Origin: Rozella allomycis CSF55
Taxonomy: Eukaryota
Reading direction: 5' to 3'
NCBI GenBank assembly: GCA_000442015.1
Contig: KE560925.1
Location: 1 to 35,862 of the forward strand
DNA length: 35,862 nucleotides
The notes below the pieces were generated by a model. It ran no database searches, was not told the DNA's origin, and was given only the letters and a program-made list of their open reading frames with translations. This document shows positions 6,928 through 17,470 of the stretch, piece by piece. Every line of letters begins with the position of its first letter. The stretch's first letter is position 1. The position numbers and the translations under genes are program-made.

Positions 6928-7066
6928 TTTGGGATCAAGTTACGAATCGGAATTTAACACATTCATAAATTAGAGTTTGCACCATTTTAGCGTATATACT
7001 GGTTTGCTTTTGGTAAAATGGTCTAAATCTGATACTTGCGAATTTTTCACTTCAGCTTCGCCTCTC

Positions 7067-7451
7067 ATGAAAGTTAAAATAGTAGATTACTTGTTTATCA
7101 AAAGAATTATAAATGATAATGCAAAGAAATATCTTCTAGTGGATGTACGAACTAAGAACGAAGTCTTGCAGGGTTGTATTAAGACATCGATTCATATTCC
7201 TTTGCATCAAATTCACAGCGAGTTTAGCATACCAACGTCCGGATTTGCTACAAAATATAATTTTGACCTGAGAAAAAATTCTCCTTTGATTTTTTATTGC
7301 CAAGCCGGAGTACGATCACAAAAGGCAGCAGAAATTGTGTCTTCTCTGGGGTTTACGTAAGTTGCTTTAGTTGATTAGATAAAGTGATGTATCGAATTAT
7401 GCTGGAAGTTGGTCTGAATTTTCTGCATTAGATAATAAAAAACTCGATTGA
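7067..7451 (+). CDS. Single-domain rhodanese (Rdl1/TSTD-like sulfurtransferase)
   Basis: LVDVRTKNEV..G.I..SIHIP, active-site loop FYCQAGVRS; intron 7357-7384, then NYAGSWSEF. Start uncertain. Confidence 0.85.
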
Positions 7452-7943
7452 TAGGTTAACCACATTAGGACGTTCTTACGTTGTAGAATCCGAATGGACA
7501 TGAAAAAATTCAAAGCTTTTACATCTCTAACTTTTATTTATTCTTTATAACATAAAATTTTGAAGCAAATCGACGGAATTTGACCTGCGGTCTGATGATG
7601 ACTAGGATCATCAATAGACAATAAGAAAGAAATTTGCCAATGGCAACTGAATGCCGTTAAAAATATAGGGCATTGGATTTGCAAAATTACGAGGCACGAA
7701 ATGAAACAAGTCCCTCAGATCAAGGTTCCCAGATATCATTTATCCGCGCGTTTATGTGCGCATTTTCACGTTTATTACTAAATAATGGTTAAAAATCATT
7801 CAATTTTTGATATTCATTGATTGAAGATCGTACAAGGTTCCTCTATTAGTATTTTCTATTCATAATTATTAATTATGCAACCATAGAAATTTGAAAAATG
7901 GATTTAATATAATCTTTTTATAAATTAATAATCTGTAATACTN

Positions 7944-9546
7944 GAGTTTGTTCAAGCCAACCAGTTTAAATTTGAAAACTACTATTTTTTCACCAAAGAG
8001 GATTGGGTTGCAGGCCTTGGATTAGCAGGACGTGCTATCTACAATAAGCTCAATTCAGCGAGTAAAAAATCAAAGTTTAAATAAATAAGTAAGCATTCCA
8101 ATGAAGCGCAAACTCAGTGCATCGAATGATTTGACGGTTTGCTTTACATCTTTTGTCGCAGATGCTTTTATTAGAGATAGAATAATGTTTTGTAAAGAAT
8201 TATTTCCTTATCCACTGAATGATTATGAAATCAAGACATTTTATGTTCGCCAATGCTATATAGATGTGTTTGAGTTATTAACGGCAAGGATTGAAAGAGG
8301 AAAAAAGAAATTTGGAATATCAGGGACTCCGGGAGTTGGCAAATCGATGTTTTTTCTGTATATCTTATTCCGTGTTTTAAAGGGGGAATCTTCATTCAAG
8401 CCAAAGAAAATAATGTATCAAAATGATCTTGAATTCCTGTGTTATGAATTTAGTACTGAAAACGAATTAATAGTCAAAAAATATTCAAGACATGAGGCAT
8501 ACATGGACACGGTTTTGCAAAAAGCTGACACTCTATATATTATTGACGGTAACGAGGGATCTCCCATCAGCTCTCGATGCATCACTGTTTTCATTAGTTC
8601 TCCTGGATCAAATGACTACAAGAGATTTATAATGCAGAATATGGCTACTGAATGGTATTTTCCTGTTTGGACTTTGGATGAATTGAAAGCTTGCCGCGAC
8701 AATTGCTATCAAGGTTTACCAGAAGAGTTTTTGAAAGAGAGATATCTTATGTTTGGCGGAATAGCTCGTTTTATATTTTGGGATTGGATTGATCAAATTG
8801 ACCGAAATGGAATTCCCCAGAAGCTGGCTACGGACCTTGAGTGTGCGTTGAATGATGAAACAGCCGTCCGAAATATTGTCAGACCACCTCAATTATTAAA
8901 GGTTTTCAATACAATCCATTCCCTGTTGCATATCATTGTCGATAGAAATTATCGGTATTCAAAGGTAGGGGTAGCTAGTGACTACATAGCCCATGAAATC
9001 TGTGTCCGGCACTATAATTACATGATCTCTCATTTACAAACTTTTTTGGGAGGGAGCCCTAGTGTCATTTCTAGACACCTGTTTGAAATTTATGGAAACC
9101 GTGTTTTCTCAATGGGAGGCAAGAAATTGAATTGCAGGGACCTCCAGAATGAGAATAATCAAGAAAGCTTTGAAATATATTTACAAAAATTTGACTTACC
9201 GACGACTTCTTTTCGGCAGAATACAATTCCTCTGGCTCTTCCAACTTCTTATTACGAAACATCAGATGATGATACATTCCCTGCTATTGATGCAATCAGT
9301 CCACAGGGAATGTTTCAATTTACGGTCGAGAGTGAACATCCTATTCGCGGTATTCAAGTGTTGAAGAAGGTTTGCAAGCTATTTAAAGACCAACAAAAGG
9401 AGCCCAAACTTTTCTTTGTAGTTCCAACACATCAATTTAGTTCCTTCAAAAAACAAGTTTTCGTCGGGAAGAGTGGCAACTCATCTGTTCAAGAAATTCA
9501 AGAGTTGAAACAATATGTCCTAGAACTCCCTGTCGGAATTAAGTAA
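7944..9546 (+). CDS. Crinkler (CRN)-type effector: SAM-like header exon, P-loop NTPase, restriction-endonuclease-fold domain; 5' end lost at N 7943
   Basis: FYVRQCY, Walker A GTPGVGKS, LYIIDG, VFISSP, PVWTLDEL, FGGIARFIF, FPAIDAI..GMFQFTV...HPI, LFFVVP and QYVLEL. Exon 7944-8061 splices in frame through GT-AG intron 8062-8089. Confidence 0.85.
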
Positions 9547-10134
9547 ATAAATTGAAATGCTTTTACATTTTAAATGTTATTAATTTATTAGAATTTATTT
9601 AGTTAATTAGTGTAATGTGTGCCAGATTTCTTAGAGTATGTATAAAGATCCAAGTTCATTCTATGATCCATCAATGAACGAGAATACTTTTCGTTCAGCT
9701 CAAAGTTCTAAATATGTAAACCTTTGCCTTTGAACCATTCTGCACGACTAGAAAATATAATAGCTTCTATATTTGAGGTAAATACTAAAAAGATTGCACC
9801 GGCTATGATCCTTTGTCACTTTTCATAAATCAAATAAATTATAAATATATCTTGTTCCTTTAAATTGAGAGAGATAAGAAGATTTGGGTATTAACTCTCA
9901 AATTCAAGCCATTTTAGTTAATTGGATAAGGTGAATTTTTGTAATTCTGAATTCATTCAGATTTTCACAGGAATCTTGTCTTAGACAATCTCTATTTCAC
10001 ATTTTGGAAATTTATTTTCATCTAAAAATATCTTGCCTTCTTGCTCTTCAGTTTGGTCATCTTTTTTTTAACAAGTAAAAAAATTCATTTAATGAGTAAA
10101 TTTTTCTTCAAAACTTCAAGAGCGTAGGAATGAG

Positions 10135-10625
10135 CCTTATTCATTTTTTGCTCATCTGAAGGATCTAGTCTTGATTGCTCATTCTTTTGCTCTTTATTCC
10201 GTATTCGATAGACTTCCTTCACGATAGATATCCAGATAATCTATCGGGCATAGATTACTGGATCATCTTCAAACAATCTTTTAAGAAGATAGAAGATTTT
10301 ATGAATTTTAATTATTACTTTAACATTTTTTACTAATTAAAAAAATCAATATTACTTTAACAGAAAATAGTCCATCTGCNCCTTATTCATTTTTTGCTCA
10401 TCTGAAGGATCTAGTCTTGATTGCTCATTCTTTTGCTCTTTATTCCGTATTCGATAGACTTCCTTCACGATAGATATCCAGATAATCTATCGGGCATAGA
10501 TTACTGGATCATCTTCAAACAATCTTTTAAGAAGATAGAAGATTTTATGAATTTTAATTATTACTTTAACATTTTTTACTAATTAAAAAAATCAATATTA
10601 CTTTAACAGAAAATAGTCCATCTGC
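10135..10625. repeat. 245 bp direct duplication either side of a single N (10380); probable assembly overlap
   Basis: 10135-10379 is repeated at 10381-10625. Confidence 0.85.
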
Positions 10626-10777
10626 ATATTTAATGTTTTATGACAGTTTAAACCTTAGGAAGGCTAGTAGGGAAGAAATCGAGATTGTCATGACTCATTT
10701 CTTCGCGTTGGCTGATTTGAAAGATTATTATATTTTTTTTTATATTTTAAATAGATACCATTAATTTATTAATCGTA

Positions 10778-11245
10778 TCTGTAATACTAAAAGCGGATTT
10801 GCCATGGTAATTGGTTGTCAAGAATAGAATTGAACCTCCATGATGCCAAATATTAAATGAGCGGCATACTTTTTTGTGAATGCTTTCTTAGTCCAAAACT
10901 ACTCTTTAAGTGTTTCGGATGTGGGTATAATGGAATGCGTAAATAAACAATATTCTGTTTATTAGTTATTAGTCGAATGCGCGTGAAGCGAGTACAGACC
11001 TAACTATGGTCAATAGCGTGCGTATATGCTAACAGCGTGCGAACCCGAATATTTTAAGTCTATTAATTTGGTAGAAGCTATGAAAACCGCTAGAAACAAA
11101 GGTCAAAGTGTTTTTTGTTAAGTGAAAGTATGAAGTACAGACGATCGACAATGCTTATCATCTTTAGGTTTTATCAATGCGAGAAACATGACGTTTTAAT
11201 GCGAGCGAAGCGAATACAACCACTAGTAACTAGTGGTTTGACTAG
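10778..11245 (+). mobile_element. Non-autonomous Helitron-like element (~470 bp)
   Basis: Begins A|TCTGTAATACTAAAAGCG and ends CTAG|T. Subterminal GCGAGCGAAGCGA (11201-11213) and perfect hairpin AACCACTAGT-A-ACTAGTGGTT (11218-11238). Non-coding; the same 5' sequence recurs at 7931-7942. Confidence 0.6.
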
Positions 11246-11340
11246 TTTATAAAGTATGAGGGATCCACATCGTCAAAATCACCAAGGAGTCGAACCTTGC
11301 CTCAACCTGAAAACCCCAGAAAATTCGGNTCTCCAATTAA

Positions 11341-12791
11341 ATGATTGAAAACTTGGAGGTAAAACTTGGCGTTAGTTTGTTCATTATATGTTTTTACTTT
11401 ATAGGGTCATTATTGCTGGCATTTAATTTCAGAAACCAAGATATCATTCAACGGCGGATGTTAGTTACTTTAAGTTTGCTATCATTTATAAACTTTTGTT
11501 GCTGTGTCCTGTTTCTTTTAACAAGCAAGTACTTTTTTGACGTTCGTGCTGTAATTACCTGTGGAGTCCAAATTACACTGTACTACATCTTTGTTCCATT
11601 ATTTTTCTTTCTATATATCATTAGGATGTGTTACTTAGTTATAACAAGTTTAATAACACAAAACAAGGTAAATGGCAGGAGTGTCCCTTTTACAACAATA
11701 CACAAACCTTTGATATACTTTATAACAATGCTTGGAAAATACGTTCTTCGACACAAACACGATAGTACTCATGTAATTTTACGATTTTGCTTTAAAAGGT
11801 TGACAAAGAATCTCGTATTGCGTTCGAAATTCAGCCGGGTCGCAAAGAAGAACTTCAATACACGCATATTCAAAAATTGACGTCAAAATCGATTCTCAAG
11901 CTTTCTGGATACATATTTATAATTGAGATTCTTTTATTTTTACTTGCTTATTACATGGACACATCGTCTATGTCTCTCACTGTGTGTCCTTACAAGCATT
12001 TTTATCCTGTCTATTTTGTAATTGCAATTTCGTTAGTTTGTATCGGATATCTAACACTGGTCCTTAAGGATTGCAAGGACAGCTTATGGATGTCAACAGA
12101 GTCGAAATTGGAAACCATAACATCCTTGGTTGGATTTTTGTTATACATAGCTGTAAATTTTCTAAATTTTAGCCCTTTTACTAACATATACAATACTTCG
12201 GGGGCAACCTTTATCTTGTTCTTTTTATCATTGTGCATGCAATATCTATCTGTGTTGCATCCAGCATTGCTGGCTTGGAAACTTTCTCGGACTAAGAAAC
12301 GATTAAATGTGGACGAAGCAAGTTTTTATCTCATATTACAAGATCCAAAAATGTTCCAAGAGCTAAAAGATGAAGCCGCTGACGAATTGTGCATTGAAAA
12401 CGTTCTCTTTATTGAAACACTAATGAATTTCTACGCAAAGCATTCTTTGAAAATGGTTTTTAGATTGCATTCGAGAAGTTCTTCCGATAAAATATTTGGC
12501 AATGAGAAAACGACCAGCGCGACACTCAAAACAGCTTTTGATAACCAAACCCTTACTGGAAAAGATATTGATAATGAGGTCTCTGCGATATACAAAGAAT
12601 ATTTAAAACCCGGTTCCCAATTTGAATTGAACATTCCTTTCACCATGCTTAAAGAATTTGAACAAAAAATGCGGGACATCAATTATGAAGATATTTTTGA
12701 GCCAATTAAGCGGGAAGTTCTTCGAATGATTTACCAAAATACTTTTCCTAGATATGTGCAAAAGGAATCTAAGAGAAAAATCAAAAAATAA
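11341..12791 (+). CDS. 7TM-RGS fusion protein (GprK/AtRGS1-like architecture), paralogue 1
   Basis: About seven hydrophobic helices, intron 11773-11798, C-terminal RGS motifs ELCIENVLF, YLKPGSQFELNIP and IFEPIKREVLRMIYQNTFPRY. Confidence 0.85.
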
Positions 12792-15918: not shown

Positions 15919-17470
15919 ATGGACGTTGAAGAAGTCATTATTCCATTTGTTCTGTTACCTTTACTATATTCTTTGACGCTTTTATGGGCATACCAATACC
16001 GTCACGAGGATTACCTGGAAAAACGTATGTTCCCTGTCCTGTTCATAACAACTGCCACCAATTTTGTTTCCGGAATATCTTACTATCCGTTTAAGAAGCC
16101 AAACAGTTTTCAAATATGTTGGGTCCAACAAATATTTTACTATTCTGTGGCATCATACTTTGTTTTCTTGTACGTGATGAAAACAGCTAGTGTGATCATA
16201 TGGATCTATTTGGCTAATCACCACGATGAAAAGAAACGGTCAAGGATGGGACTAGAGAAACCTGTTTTACTATTCTTTGGGGCTGTATCAAGGATAGTGA
16301 ACAGAAAAGCCAAGGTAGGATTGTTTCTTTTGGATTAATAGTCGAAGGAGTCGAAAGATAACGAATTAACGTATGCTATTAGAAAGCCAGATTTGAAAGT
16401 CTTTTTATTCTGCTCCTTTTGTTTCAATATATTGCAAATAATCCTATTCTCAATTGGCTTTTTCACTACCCTCGATCACATGTATGATGATGGTTGTGCT
16501 TTAGCACCCTTCTATCCTATGATTGTTTTGGTTTTTACTTTCATGATGCTAGTTGGATATTTTATGTTTGTTTTAAAGAAGCTGAAGGATAACTTGGGAA
16601 TGGTAAAGGAATGTAAAATGATATTTATTACCTATTGCATTTGCTTGCCAATATATGCAATTTTAGACCAAACAAGTAATGATCCNCTTCATGATGATAG
16701 TTGGATATTTTATGTTTGTTTTAAAAAAGTTGAAGGATAACTTGGGAATGGTAAAGGAATGTAAAATGATCTTTATTACCTATTGCATTTGCTTGCCAAT
16801 ATATGCAATTTTAGACCAAACAAGTAATGATCCTGTGACTAAAGTACGTACTTCTAAAGCTCTAGCTTTGACTGTTGCTATAATCGTTCATTACCATTCA
16901 CTGGTATACCCCACGATTTTGGCGATGAAATTTAGATACATTAAAAGTCTAATAAGTTTAACCGAGCCCGCTCTCTTTAGTGCATTGAACGATCCATCTT
17001 CATTTAAGCAGATCAAAATGGTGGCCATAGAGTCATTAGCAGTGGAGAACATCCTATTTCTAGAAGAATTGAAAGATTTTTATGATAAAATTGGTGAAAA
17101 GTTTACGTACGCAAAGATCAAAAACGAAAACGATAACGTTGTCAAGACTTCTCCGGTTTTGACAAGCGACAAATCCTTAATTGTTCATACAAATCTCAGC
17201 CGACTTTGTCATACTTATATGGAGCAGATATACGAAAATTTTATAAAAGCTGGCTCGCCGAACGAGTTAAACTTGACTAATGAGGTTAGAAAGGAATTTG
17301 AGGACAAAATGGGGTCTTCTGACTTCTCACTTTCTATTTTTAATCCCGTGAAAGACGAAGTTTTAAAAATAATCTTTCAAAACATATTTCCAAGGTACGT
17401 AGAAAAGCTAAAGGAATCCAAATCGAAATCAAGGAGCTTATTGCTAGGAAGATTCTCGAGGGAAAAATAA
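15919..17470 (+). CDS. 7TM-RGS fusion protein, paralogue 2 (interrupted by an assembly duplication at N 16686)
   Basis: TM helices, then ESLAVENILF, FIKAGSPNELNL and IFNPVKDEVLKIIFQNIFPRY; collinear with 11341-12791. Confidence 0.85.

Follow-up and report, generated by a model that had tools for sequence, protein, structure and literature searches.

Canonical (HLE1) Helitrons, as outlined in the sections of the sources drawn on here (PMC4289320, PMC11417382), begin with TC and end with CTRR, carry a hairpin near the 3' end, insert between A and T, and have neither target duplications nor terminal inverted repeats. Accounts of Helitron searches, to the extent consulted, also indicate that the terminal TC and CTRR signals alone give many false positives. 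The closest described fungal elements, HELPO1 and HELPO2 of Pleurotus ostreatus, are covered by the same two sources. For Rozella and the Cryptomycota, we found no Helitron report in the literature, and the HELIANO supplement has no Rozella entry.

In Phytophthora infestans, crinkler (CRN) genes have been placed in Helitron-rich regions (Haas et al. 2009, via PMC5289972), and crinkler C-terminal modules of the NTPase + (HTH) + REase type have been described (Zhang et al. 2016, via PMC5289972), both according to the part of that source available to us. An earlier note on a 35,862-nt stretch of the Rozella allomycis CSF55 genome (contig KE560925.1; hereafter the window, meaning the whole stretch that was analyzed) proposed that a CRN gene located there is bracketed by Helitron-like ends and could be mobilized together with them. 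Our analysis indicates that this apparent bracket is probably a scaffolding error around one short, Helitron-like, non-autonomous element, the same end of which is seen twice.

RESULTS

The scaffold and the contigs compared with it

The window consists of short contigs that have been scaffolded with single Ns between them (n = 9). Direct duplications of 37 to 245 nt, with 95 to 100% identity, flank six of the nine Ns; since these represent unmerged overlaps, the single Ns are taken as contig joins. For comparison, we used contigs assembled from the public sequencing runs X1, X2, X3, and X6 (X1 and X3 being one sample), which were aligned to positions 7000-12000. These are contigs and not raw reads, probably from the same strain as the window, and some of the runs may be source data of the window's own assembly; therefore, they are regarded as a re-assembly rather than as an independent isolate. 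X1 does not cover 8169-8502, and that stretch was not used as evidence. Statements on joints and links apply to the pieces and loose ends listed for these alignments; a further 912 pieces and 151 loose ends lie outside the listings. The features relevant to the analysis are as follows.

7931-7942, plus strand: 12-nt end of contig c1, i.e., the host A plus 11 nt (TCTGTAATACT) from the start of an element copy, E'
7943, no strand: single-N join of c1 and c2, supported by none of the run contigs listed
7944-8084, plus strand: 46-codon tail and stop, open toward the contig edge; its frame is not that of the CRN ORF, from which stop codons separate it
8101-9546, plus strand: ORF of 481 aa, CRN (crinkler) C-terminal module with a P-loop NTPase and a possible restriction-endonuclease-like domain
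9547-10379, no strand: AT-rich noncoding tail of contig c2, with a short high-depth repeat at about 10076-10136
10135-10379 and 10381-10625, no strand: 245-nt stretch present twice, 100% identical, on either side of the N at 10380
10626-10777, no strand: left part of repeat R (R-left), ending with the target A at 10777 according to empty-site joints
10778-11245, plus strand: element E, 468 nt, noncoding, TC...hairpin...CTAG, within repeat R; limits from the empty-site joint, ambiguous by 1 nt
11246-11328, no strand: right part of repeat R (R-right), starting with the target T; high depth
11329, no strand: single-N join of c3 and c4, supported by none of the run contigs listed
11341-12791, plus strand: membrane-segment ORF and RGS-domain ORF, probably one gene

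Both supposed termini probably lead into the same short element

The letters reported in the earlier note are correct: ATCTGTAATACT is present at 7931-7942, with an N at 7943, and again at 10777-10788, and no further match occurs in the window when one mismatch is allowed. Judged on sequence alone, this pair is not above chance: the 5.3-kb region has 3 maximal direct repeats of at least 12 nt, and first-order Markov simulations (n = 200) yielded 2.55 on average, with one or more in 187 of them. A chance match in AT-rich DNA, which these numbers would allow, is nevertheless ruled out, and we give it next to no weight, because contigs from all four runs go from 7930 into 10777 and onward, so that the sequence after 7942 continues as 10789 onward, and because 12 nt is too short to make joins in contigs assembled from longer words.

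This 7930 to 10777 joint skips 2,846 positions, with 12 letters fitting both sides, and its depth (457.1 in X1, 144.2 in X2, 5.99 in X6, and 66.6 in X3) is near the single-copy flank depth of each run. X1 record 1 (9,830 nt) comprises 7000-7930, followed by 10777-11227 without a single difference, 65 other letters, and finally 11330-12000, which makes the membrane-RGS gene the right-hand neighbor of E'. The complete path through the element to c4 is seen in this contig only, and the X2 and X3 contigs break at the ends of the element. Beyond its first 11 nt, E' is absent from the scaffold.

These contigs bear directly on the proposed compound Helitron, with its 5' end at 7932 and its 3' end at 11245, that would carry the CRN gene and move it by rolling-circle transposition. 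The scaffold as written does have A/TC at 7931-7933 and CTAG/T at 11242-11246 (the slash marks the insertion limit), and both gene capture by Helitrons and the P. infestans precedent, as far as the sources consulted describe them, would fit such a unit. However, 7930 joins 10777 directly in all four runs, and X1 record 1 lacks the CRN block and runs on to 11330-12000; the 5' end at 7932 is accordingly that of a separate, complete short element, entering that element's own body of at least 451 nt and then c4. Indeed, the earlier note had itself named a complete, independent short element in the gap as an outcome contrary to its proposal, and such an element, opening at the first 12-mer, lies there, with the rhodanese gene on one side and the membrane-RGS gene on the other. 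Among the joints listed for the run contigs, none corresponds to an empty site of the compound unit (7931 to 11246), no second copy of that unit was seen in these contigs, and the CRN contig opens in the tail of a reading frame rather than in the interior of an element. We consequently regard a CRN-carrying compound Helitron as highly improbable.

The joins on either side of the CRN block were also assessed. Contigs c2 and c3 are truly adjacent, since the 245-nt duplicate on both sides of the N at 10380 represents a contig overlap left unmerged, collapsed by the joint from 10134 to 10381 in X1. None of the run contigs listed links c3 to c4, and in three of the four runs the loose ends behind 11328 share a continuation other than 11330 (two in X2, two in X6, and three in X3). 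On the left, X6 record 25 extends 128 nt past the edge at 7944 with sequence that matches nothing in 7000-12000, and no joint between any element 3' end and 7944 is among those listed for the run contigs. The impression of a block interrupting packed housekeeping genes is thus best explained by mis-scaffolding, with neither the join at 7943 nor that at 11329 being supported.

Since a k-mer assembler may cross a repeat by dropping the weaker branch, an allele with the CRN block at this locus deserves consideration. The scaffold order would then be real in one allele or haplotype, with the CRN gene and the repeat block between two direct element copies, and the short form in the read contigs would represent the second allele, or else recombination between these copies would have deleted the block. 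Differences of 2-5% separate the duplicated flanks at several Ns, and X2, X3, and X6 have contigs that are 3-10% different from the CRN region; both could be allelic divergence. The original scaffolder presumably had read-pair links, and the depth of the element interior is compatible with two copies, although depth does not tell one copy from two (in X2, 339.6 for the element interior, with the flanks at 147.9 and 313.8 and CRN at about 200). Against this, a recombinant should retain R-right (11246-11328 and its continuation) before c4, whereas X1 record 1 has only 65 letters between 11227 and 11330; in addition, the X6 sequence left of 7944 corresponds to neither c1 nor the 3' end of an element, and the c3-c4 link appears in no listed contig. 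An allelic difference is therefore an unlikely account of the locus, and a misplaced CRN contig is the reading that we retain.

The 468-nt element looks like a Helitron

The earlier note had described a noncoding unit of ~470 bp that starts at the second 12-mer and ends in a hairpin and CTAG/T, and this description holds for a 468-nt unit (10778-11245, element E). Its limits come from empty sites. More specifically, a joint from 10777 to 11246 in two of the four runs (X1 and X2) skips 468 nt, the skipped part beginning with TC and ending with AG; a variant empty-site joint (10762 to 11246) is found in X1, and AATAATCGTA stands directly before 11246 in two X6 contigs. According to the empty-site contigs, the element inserted between A (10777) and T (11246) without target duplication, its 5' end being the TC at 10778 and its 3' end the CTAG at 11242-11245, followed by the T at 11246. 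Two features lie inside it.

10976-11011, plus strand: degenerate version of the 3' terminal motif within the element (local score 30 to 11198-11238; maximum 23 in 200 shuffles)
11220-11236, plus strand: palindrome forming the subterminal hairpin, with 5 nt between it and the terminal CTAG (11242-11245)

The hairpin has a stem of 8 to 9 bp (11218/11220-11236/11238) located 3 to 5 nt ahead of CTAG, and it is of the kind that HelSearch accepts. Aligning the first 40 nt with the reverse-complemented last 40 nt revealed no terminal inverted repeats (local score 6, against a null mean of 5.8), and 10778-11245 contains no open frame of more than 52 codons. Searches with Rfam (gathering threshold and E <= 1) and ARAGORN gave no match in the element or in the repeat.

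Element E is located inside a high-copy repeat: the summed depth of R-left in X1 is 26,095-52,143 versus 457 in the flanks, and R-right in other contigs runs on into more repeat and not into 11330. From its letters, 11246-11328 appears to include a tRNA-like T-arm on the minus strand.

At least 17 contigs (11 in X2, 5 in X3, and 1 in X6) carry differing sequence before 10776/10777, and the 3' region of the element has high depth in the run contigs. The E' copy at c1 is likewise preceded by A. The sequence at the end of c1 does not resemble R-left, nor does that at the start of c4 resemble R-right, so the element occurs in two different insertion contexts. E' matches as far as 11227, and the first CTAG (11223-11226) may be its end. 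The 35.9-kb window holds no second complete copy of the element, and metagenome contigs searched with its 3' 26-mer, or with the first bases of c2, gave 0 matches.

With these properties, the 468-nt unit does look like a non-autonomous Helitron, and the Helitron-like half of the earlier proposal (A/TC...CTAG/T at the empty-site limits, a hairpin, no target duplication) stands, whereas the compound gene-carrying half does not. We also considered whether the unit might be mobile or repeated and yet not a Helitron, i.e., a tandem (satellite-like) unit or a member of another class that mimics TC...CTAG. Several observations lean this way: in X2 and X3, back-joints leading from 11227/11228 to 10776-10787 represent head-to-tail arrangements, many alignments end at 11227 and not at 11245, and no Rep-helicase partner of the unit is known. 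Terminal signals of this type are, moreover, frequent in AT-rich DNA, and the fold energy of the 65-nt stretch that holds the hairpin is unexceptional (z -1.75; 10 of 200 shuffles fold as well). However, the limits came from empty sites and not from a motif search, and the coincidence of the four terminal features, i.e., A/TC...CTRR/T at an independently defined insertion, has a chance probability of about 1.7e-4 at this base composition. The lack of target duplication and of terminal inverted repeats and the solo copies in two unrelated contexts also argue against a non-Helitron unit, and tail-to-head arrays are described for Helitrons too in the source sections consulted. A unit of another class thus seems doubtful, and we continue to treat element E as Helitron-like.

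Compared with HELPO1 and HELPO2, as portrayed in the sections of PMC4289320 and PMC11417382 used here, element E is alike in its TC, CTAG, hairpin, and A/T site, in lacking target duplication and terminal inverted repeats, and probably in having several copies that share ends. It differs in being only 468 nt long without coding capacity, in its internal degenerate second 3' motif, in having some relatives that appear head-to-tail or end at an earlier CTAG, and in its cryptomycete host.

The CRN gene probably lies outside the element

The earlier identification of the ORF at 8101-9546 as a CRN NTPase was borne out by homology, conserved motifs, and a structural model. Among 4,506 candidates, 98 proteins matched it with E <= 0.001, several of them named crinkler at the source, and it shares 40-48% identity over 92-100% of its length with many named crinklers from chytrids, aphelids, and Aphanomyces. 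Walker A and B are conserved (S74, G75, T76, and G78, and D149 and G150, are invariant in 29 sequences). The model (pLDDT 80) matched Avs/AVAST, ORC/Cdc6, NLR, and Apaf-1 structures in Foldseek (E 4e-6 to 1e-3), and VIA gave Z 9.7 with 231 aligned and an rmsd of 5.5; judging from the model, the NTPase fold is STAND/AAA+-like. Pfam returned one weak RHSP P-loop match (E 0.0084, below the cut-off), and a PDB sequence search gave 0 matches. For the last 146 residues (pLDDT 82.8), restriction enzymes (OkrAI, BamHI, McrC, BspD6I, and SdaI) top both lists, with Foldseek E >= 0.19 and VIA Z <= 3.7, such that a nuclease fold is only hinted at by the predicted structure.

The crinkler N-terminal header (PF20147) was detected neither in the 481-aa ORF nor in the upstream tail; the relatives P0003 and P0019 carry it, and the header may be located beyond the contig edge or may have been lost. 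The first 12-mer had been described as lying just upstream of the CRN coding sequence, which applies to the ATG at 8101 only, since the contig at 7944 opens inside the 46-codon frame tail. This tail has a weak match to the closest paralogue, P0002 (27% identity over 30 residues, residues 9-38 of P0002; pairwise E 0.006), upstream of the CRN module of P0002 and collinear with a shared MKRK stretch. It matched P0096 with E 0.34 and had no Pfam match. A profile of the N-terminal regions of 36 relatives did not recognize the tail (E 0.95) or a trial splice of tail and ORF (E 0.28), so the link between tail and CRN rests on the P0002 pairwise match; the same profile weakly matched the linker at the start of the CRN ORF (E 0.11). 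Going by this slight sequence resemblance, the tail is probably what remains of the stretch that preceded the CRN module.

With respect to the crinklers of NTPase + (HTH) + REase type, as characterized in the part of PMC5289972 consulted, the ORF is alike in homology, Walker A and B, and the predicted STAND/AAA+-like fold, and differs in the absence of the PF20147 header that many relatives have. Within its own contig, the ORF precedes the E copy by 985 nt. This closeness of a crinkler gene to a Helitron-like element (985 nt downstream) and to other repeats resembles the situation reported for P. infestans in the same excerpted source. Unlike a gene-carrying case, the CRN gene here is outside the element and the bracket is a scaffolding effect, as judged from the one CRN-element neighborhood examined. 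The CRN gene is most likely near mobile DNA and outside any mobile unit.

DISCUSSION

Most likely, the same end of a single small element was seen twice and gave rise to both supposed termini, so the CRN gene is not carried by a transposon here. We propose that the real locus order would be the rhodanese gene, a 570-nt spacer, E', a few dozen bases, and the membrane-RGS gene, with contig c1 ending 12 nt into E'. A second, identical copy (E, 10778-11245) would be elsewhere, inside the high-copy repeat R on contig c3, which overlaps the CRN-bearing contig c2. The shared element most likely led the scaffolder to thread c2 and c3 between c1 and c4, and this threading would have given the CRN gene its apparent 5' and 3' Helitron ends. 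In this scheme, c2 and c3 would come from another locus and would not represent an alternative allele. The pattern is that of a collapsed-repeat scaffolding error, i.e., contigs that end at repeat limits, a contig from another copy threaded into the gap, and unmerged overlaps at N joins, and nothing about it is unusual here.

The direct path from c1 through the element to c4, the limits of E with its A/T target, and the several 5' flank contexts are observed in contigs. As for how E moves, we would expect rolling-circle transposition with a nick at the 5' TC and termination at the hairpin and CTAG, and a Rep-helicase may be supplied in trans by an autonomous element outside the sequence seen here.

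A more far-reaching reading, which we consider quite improbable, is that of a still-active cryptomycete family of Helitron type that forms tail-to-head arrays, inserts into a high-copy tRNA-like repeat and gene promoters, and settles beside crinkler paralogues often enough to drive their duplication. Crinkler duplication driven by adjoining Helitrons has been proposed for Phytophthora. If this were true, the CRN block would be a real, hemizygous, element-flanked insertion.

What was taken for a transposon-borne effector cassette is thus most likely a product of scaffolding. Such an artifact should be put on record, since eight further single-N joins are present in this scaffold and the duplicated flanks at five of these can break gene models. 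The bracket is most likely an assembly artifact, and the short element is most likely of an ordinary, Helitron-like kind. It nonetheless provides a clean, empty-site-verified insertion of Helitron type in a lineage for which we found no Helitron report, and it could seed a survey of rolling-circle elements in Rozella, together with a test of their nearness to crinkler genes.

A short element with Helitron-like ends

The earlier note described a crinkler (CRN) gene bracketed by Helitron-like termini at 7931-11246 and read the block as a possible transposon-borne effector cassette. The 12-mer behind this reading, ATCTGTAATACT, is indeed found at 7931-7942 and 10777-10788, with no further match anywhere in the window when one mismatch is tolerated, and the first copy is cut by an N at 7943. 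The features to which we refer are as follows.

Features of the stretch
to 7942: contig c1
7944-10379: contig c2
10381-11328: contig c3
from 11330: contig c4
~10605-10777 and 11246-11328: high-copy repeat R, interrupted by the element E
10976-11011: internal degenerate copy of the 3' motif of E
11220-11236: palindrome, folding into a hairpin of 8-9 bp
10380, 13311, 14636, 16686, 35554, 35692: single Ns lying between duplicated stretches of 37-245 nt

The second 12-mer opens a non-coding unit, as had been noticed, and this unit (E, 10778-11245) measures 468 nt, has no open frame of more than 52 codons inside it, and gave no match in Rfam and tRNA searches. Its end is also as described: 5 bases separate the hairpin from CTAG (11242-11245), and T (11246) comes next. 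Contig c3 carries E between the two parts of R, and E-free R contigs show a joint from 10777 to 11246 that skips 468 nt with the ends TC and AG (depth 13 in run X1 and 247.7 in X2). A variant joint leads from 10762 to 11246 with 22 other letters (X1, depth 272), and AATAATCGTA stands directly before 11246 in two X6 contigs. The limits of E, thus set without a motif search, read A/TC...CTAG/T with a 1-base ambiguity and no target duplication, a coincidence with a chance of ~1.7e-4 at this base composition, and a comparison of both ends revealed no inverted repeats.

The 5' end of the element lies behind many different flanks (at least 11 contigs in X2, 5 in X3, and 1 in X6). Since the c1 and c4 flanks of a second copy, E' (starting at 7932), are unrelated to R, there are at least two insertion contexts. 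The short 468-nt element is genuine.

Read-derived contigs across the bracket

We used Logan contigs from 4 (X1, X2, X6, and X3) of 15 public runs for 7000-12000. The evidence consists of contigs, not reads; X1 and X3 come from one sample, so that the runs represent at most three studies, and the contigs are probably of the same strain as the window, perhaps partly the data behind it. A joint from 7930 to 10777, at which the 12-mer fits both sides, was present in all four runs at single-copy flank depths (457.1 in X1, 144.2 in X2, 5.99 in X6, and 66.6 in X3). The whole path from c1 through the element to c4 is given by one contig among those listed: this 9,830-nt X1 contig covers 7000-7930, continues through 10777-11227 with 0 differences, and, after 65 letters unlike the window, covers 11330-12000. 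Therefore, the first 12-mer is not a second terminus but the start of E', a copy of the same short element; this copy extends over 451 nt or more and then enters c4, bypassing the CRN block. Taken purely as sequence, the pair of 12-mers is unremarkable, in that 187 of 200 Markov simulations of a de-duplicated 5.3-kb region held a direct repeat of at least 12 nt (mean 2.55 vs 3 observed); a chance match of the two copies is, given the joint in all four runs, scarcely credible.

A compound Helitron carrying the CRN gene, as the earlier note proposed, is hardly more plausible: its 5' end at 7932 leads into E', which reaches c4 without CRN, and its empty site, a joint from 7931 to 11246, is absent among the joints listed for the four runs. 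Likewise, no joint listed for these runs leads from any element 3' end to 7944, and the joins c1/c2 (7943) and c3/c4 (11329) are unsupported by the contigs listed. Contigs reaching 11328 (at least two in X2, two in X6, and three in X3) continue in common sequence and not at 11330, and an X6 contig over 7944-8185 extends 128 nt leftward into sequence unmatched within 7000-12000. The flagged effector cassette is most likely not a real feature.

The window contains nine single Ns, and direct duplications of 37-245 nt at 95-100% identity flank six of them; the single Ns are therefore joins of overlapping but unmerged contig ends. The 2-5% differences between duplicated flanks could be allelic. Because c2 and c3 have 245 identical bases in common, they are truly adjacent, and one read-derived contig collapses this duplicate by a joint from 10134 to 10381. 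The reading that we favor, and consider fairly likely, is that E' sits between a rhodanese gene and a membrane-RGS gene, that its twin E lies in R, 985 nt downstream of the CRN ORF (8101-9546) on the 3.1-kb piece c2+c3, and that the scaffolder threaded this piece into the E' gap via the shared element. It is unlikely that one allele truly carries the CRN block at this locus, as the short form is without the R-right sequence (11246-11328) that a two-copy recombinant should keep. Depths in X2 (element interior 339.6, flanks 147.9 and 313.8, CRN contigs ~200) are compatible with either one or two element copies.

Overlaps left unmerged in this way create false duplications in the assembly and may disrupt gene models.

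Repeats and neighboring genes

Summed over its contigs, R has a depth exceeding that of the flanks by a factor of tens to hundreds (26,095-52,143 vs 457 in X1). As read directly from the sequence, R-right contains, on the minus strand, a perfect tRNA-like T-arm with a 5-bp stem and 7-nt loop, and its continuation in other contigs holds a second B-box-like motif. Searches with Rfam and ARAGORN returned no match for R, which could be a tRNA-derived SINE-like repeat. Another repeat boundary lies at 10076-10136, in the tail of the CRN contig; this short segment has a very high summed depth (7,771-12,335 in X1 and X2), and beyond it contigs diverge from the window with shared sequence (at least 2 in X1, 5 in X2, and 8 in X3).

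The window (35,862 nt, G+C ~35%) hosts conserved eukaryotic genes for Raptor, an F-box/WD40 protein, rhodanese, elongation factor 2, ALG10, and 6-phosphofructo-2-kinase, together with two RGS-domain genes less than 6 kb apart (11341-12791 and 16667-17467). An ORF with several hydrophobic segments precedes the first, which looks like a membrane-anchored RGS protein gene; in a read-derived contig, E' lies within ~80 nt of its first ATG.

The CRN ORF

The 481-aa product matched 98 proteins at E ≤ 0.001 among 4,506 candidates, and many of these, from chytrids, an aphelid, and Aphanomyces, are named crinkler and are 40-48% identical across almost the entire ORF. The closest relatives, which carry the name Rozella allomycis CSF55, are P0002 (82% identity), P0096 (80% over a fifth of the query), and P0046 (44%). 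Judged by sequence, the ORF encodes a genuine crinkler C-terminal module. The label NTPase-REase held for its first half: the residues of Walker A and Walker B do not vary across an alignment of 29 sequences, and the model (pLDDT 80) resembles STAND/AAA+ NTPases (Foldseek E 4e-6 to 1e-3; VIA Z 9.7, 231 residues aligned, rmsd 5.5). For a separate model of the C-terminal 146 residues (pLDDT 82.8), restriction endonucleases headed both lists weakly (Foldseek E ≥ 0.19, VIA Z ≤ 3.7), so the predicted nuclease label draws mainly on the literature (PMC5289972).

No crinkler header domain was found in the 481-aa ORF, and most relatives extend ~100 residues further at the N-terminus. Contig c2 begins partway through a reading frame whose 46-codon tail (7944-8084) shows weak similarity to the sequence immediately before the P0002 CRN module (E 0.006; P0096, E 0.34), is in a different frame from the CRN ORF, and is separated from its ATG by stop codons. 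A profile built on the N-terminal regions of 36 relatives gave no significant match to the tail (E 0.95) or to a trial splice of tail and ORF (E 0.28). This weak resemblance suggests that the c2 edge probably lies in CRN-related sequence, not in a promoter beside a transposon end.

X2, X3, and X6 contigs match the ORF (8190-9440) with 3-10% differences (e.g., 18 in 535 nt); therefore, a very close CRN paralogue or allele exists beside P0002. In P0096, from another assembly under the same species name, the first ~160 residues correspond to a CRN paralogue whose N-terminus is longer, and the remaining ~240 are unrelated to crinklers, with no Pfam match; the gene model may continue into an inserted element.

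Relation to known Helitrons

Helitron-like termini thus stand for the 468-nt unit, by its empty sites and A/TC...CTAG/T limits, and fall for the pair bracketing CRN, by the joint from 7930 to 10777. E resembles canonical Helitrons in these ends, the lack of target duplication and inverted-repeat ends, and the hairpin (PMC4289320 and PMC11417382), which agrees with the HelSearch criteria.

Several X2 and X3 contigs run from 11227/11228 back to 10776-10787 and represent copies in head-to-tail order or tandemly arrayed relatives; these back-joints start in the first half of the 3' palindrome and re-enter the 5' end with 1-5 extra letters. Many alignments also end at 11227, right after an earlier CTAG (11223-11226). 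Such joints, the 11227 stops, and the internal 3' motif are consistent with rolling-circle elements, for which tail-to-head arrays are described (PMC5289972). The same three observations leave room for a satellite-like repeat, but the limits and ends of E carry the defining features of canonical Helitrons, and we doubt that the unit is something other than a Helitron.

The open-access text searched held no Helitron report for Rozella or Cryptomycota. A CRN-Helitron link is known from Phytophthora infestans (PMC5289972) and is echoed here as a single neighborhood only. E adds a member, a putative Helitron, to a known element type.
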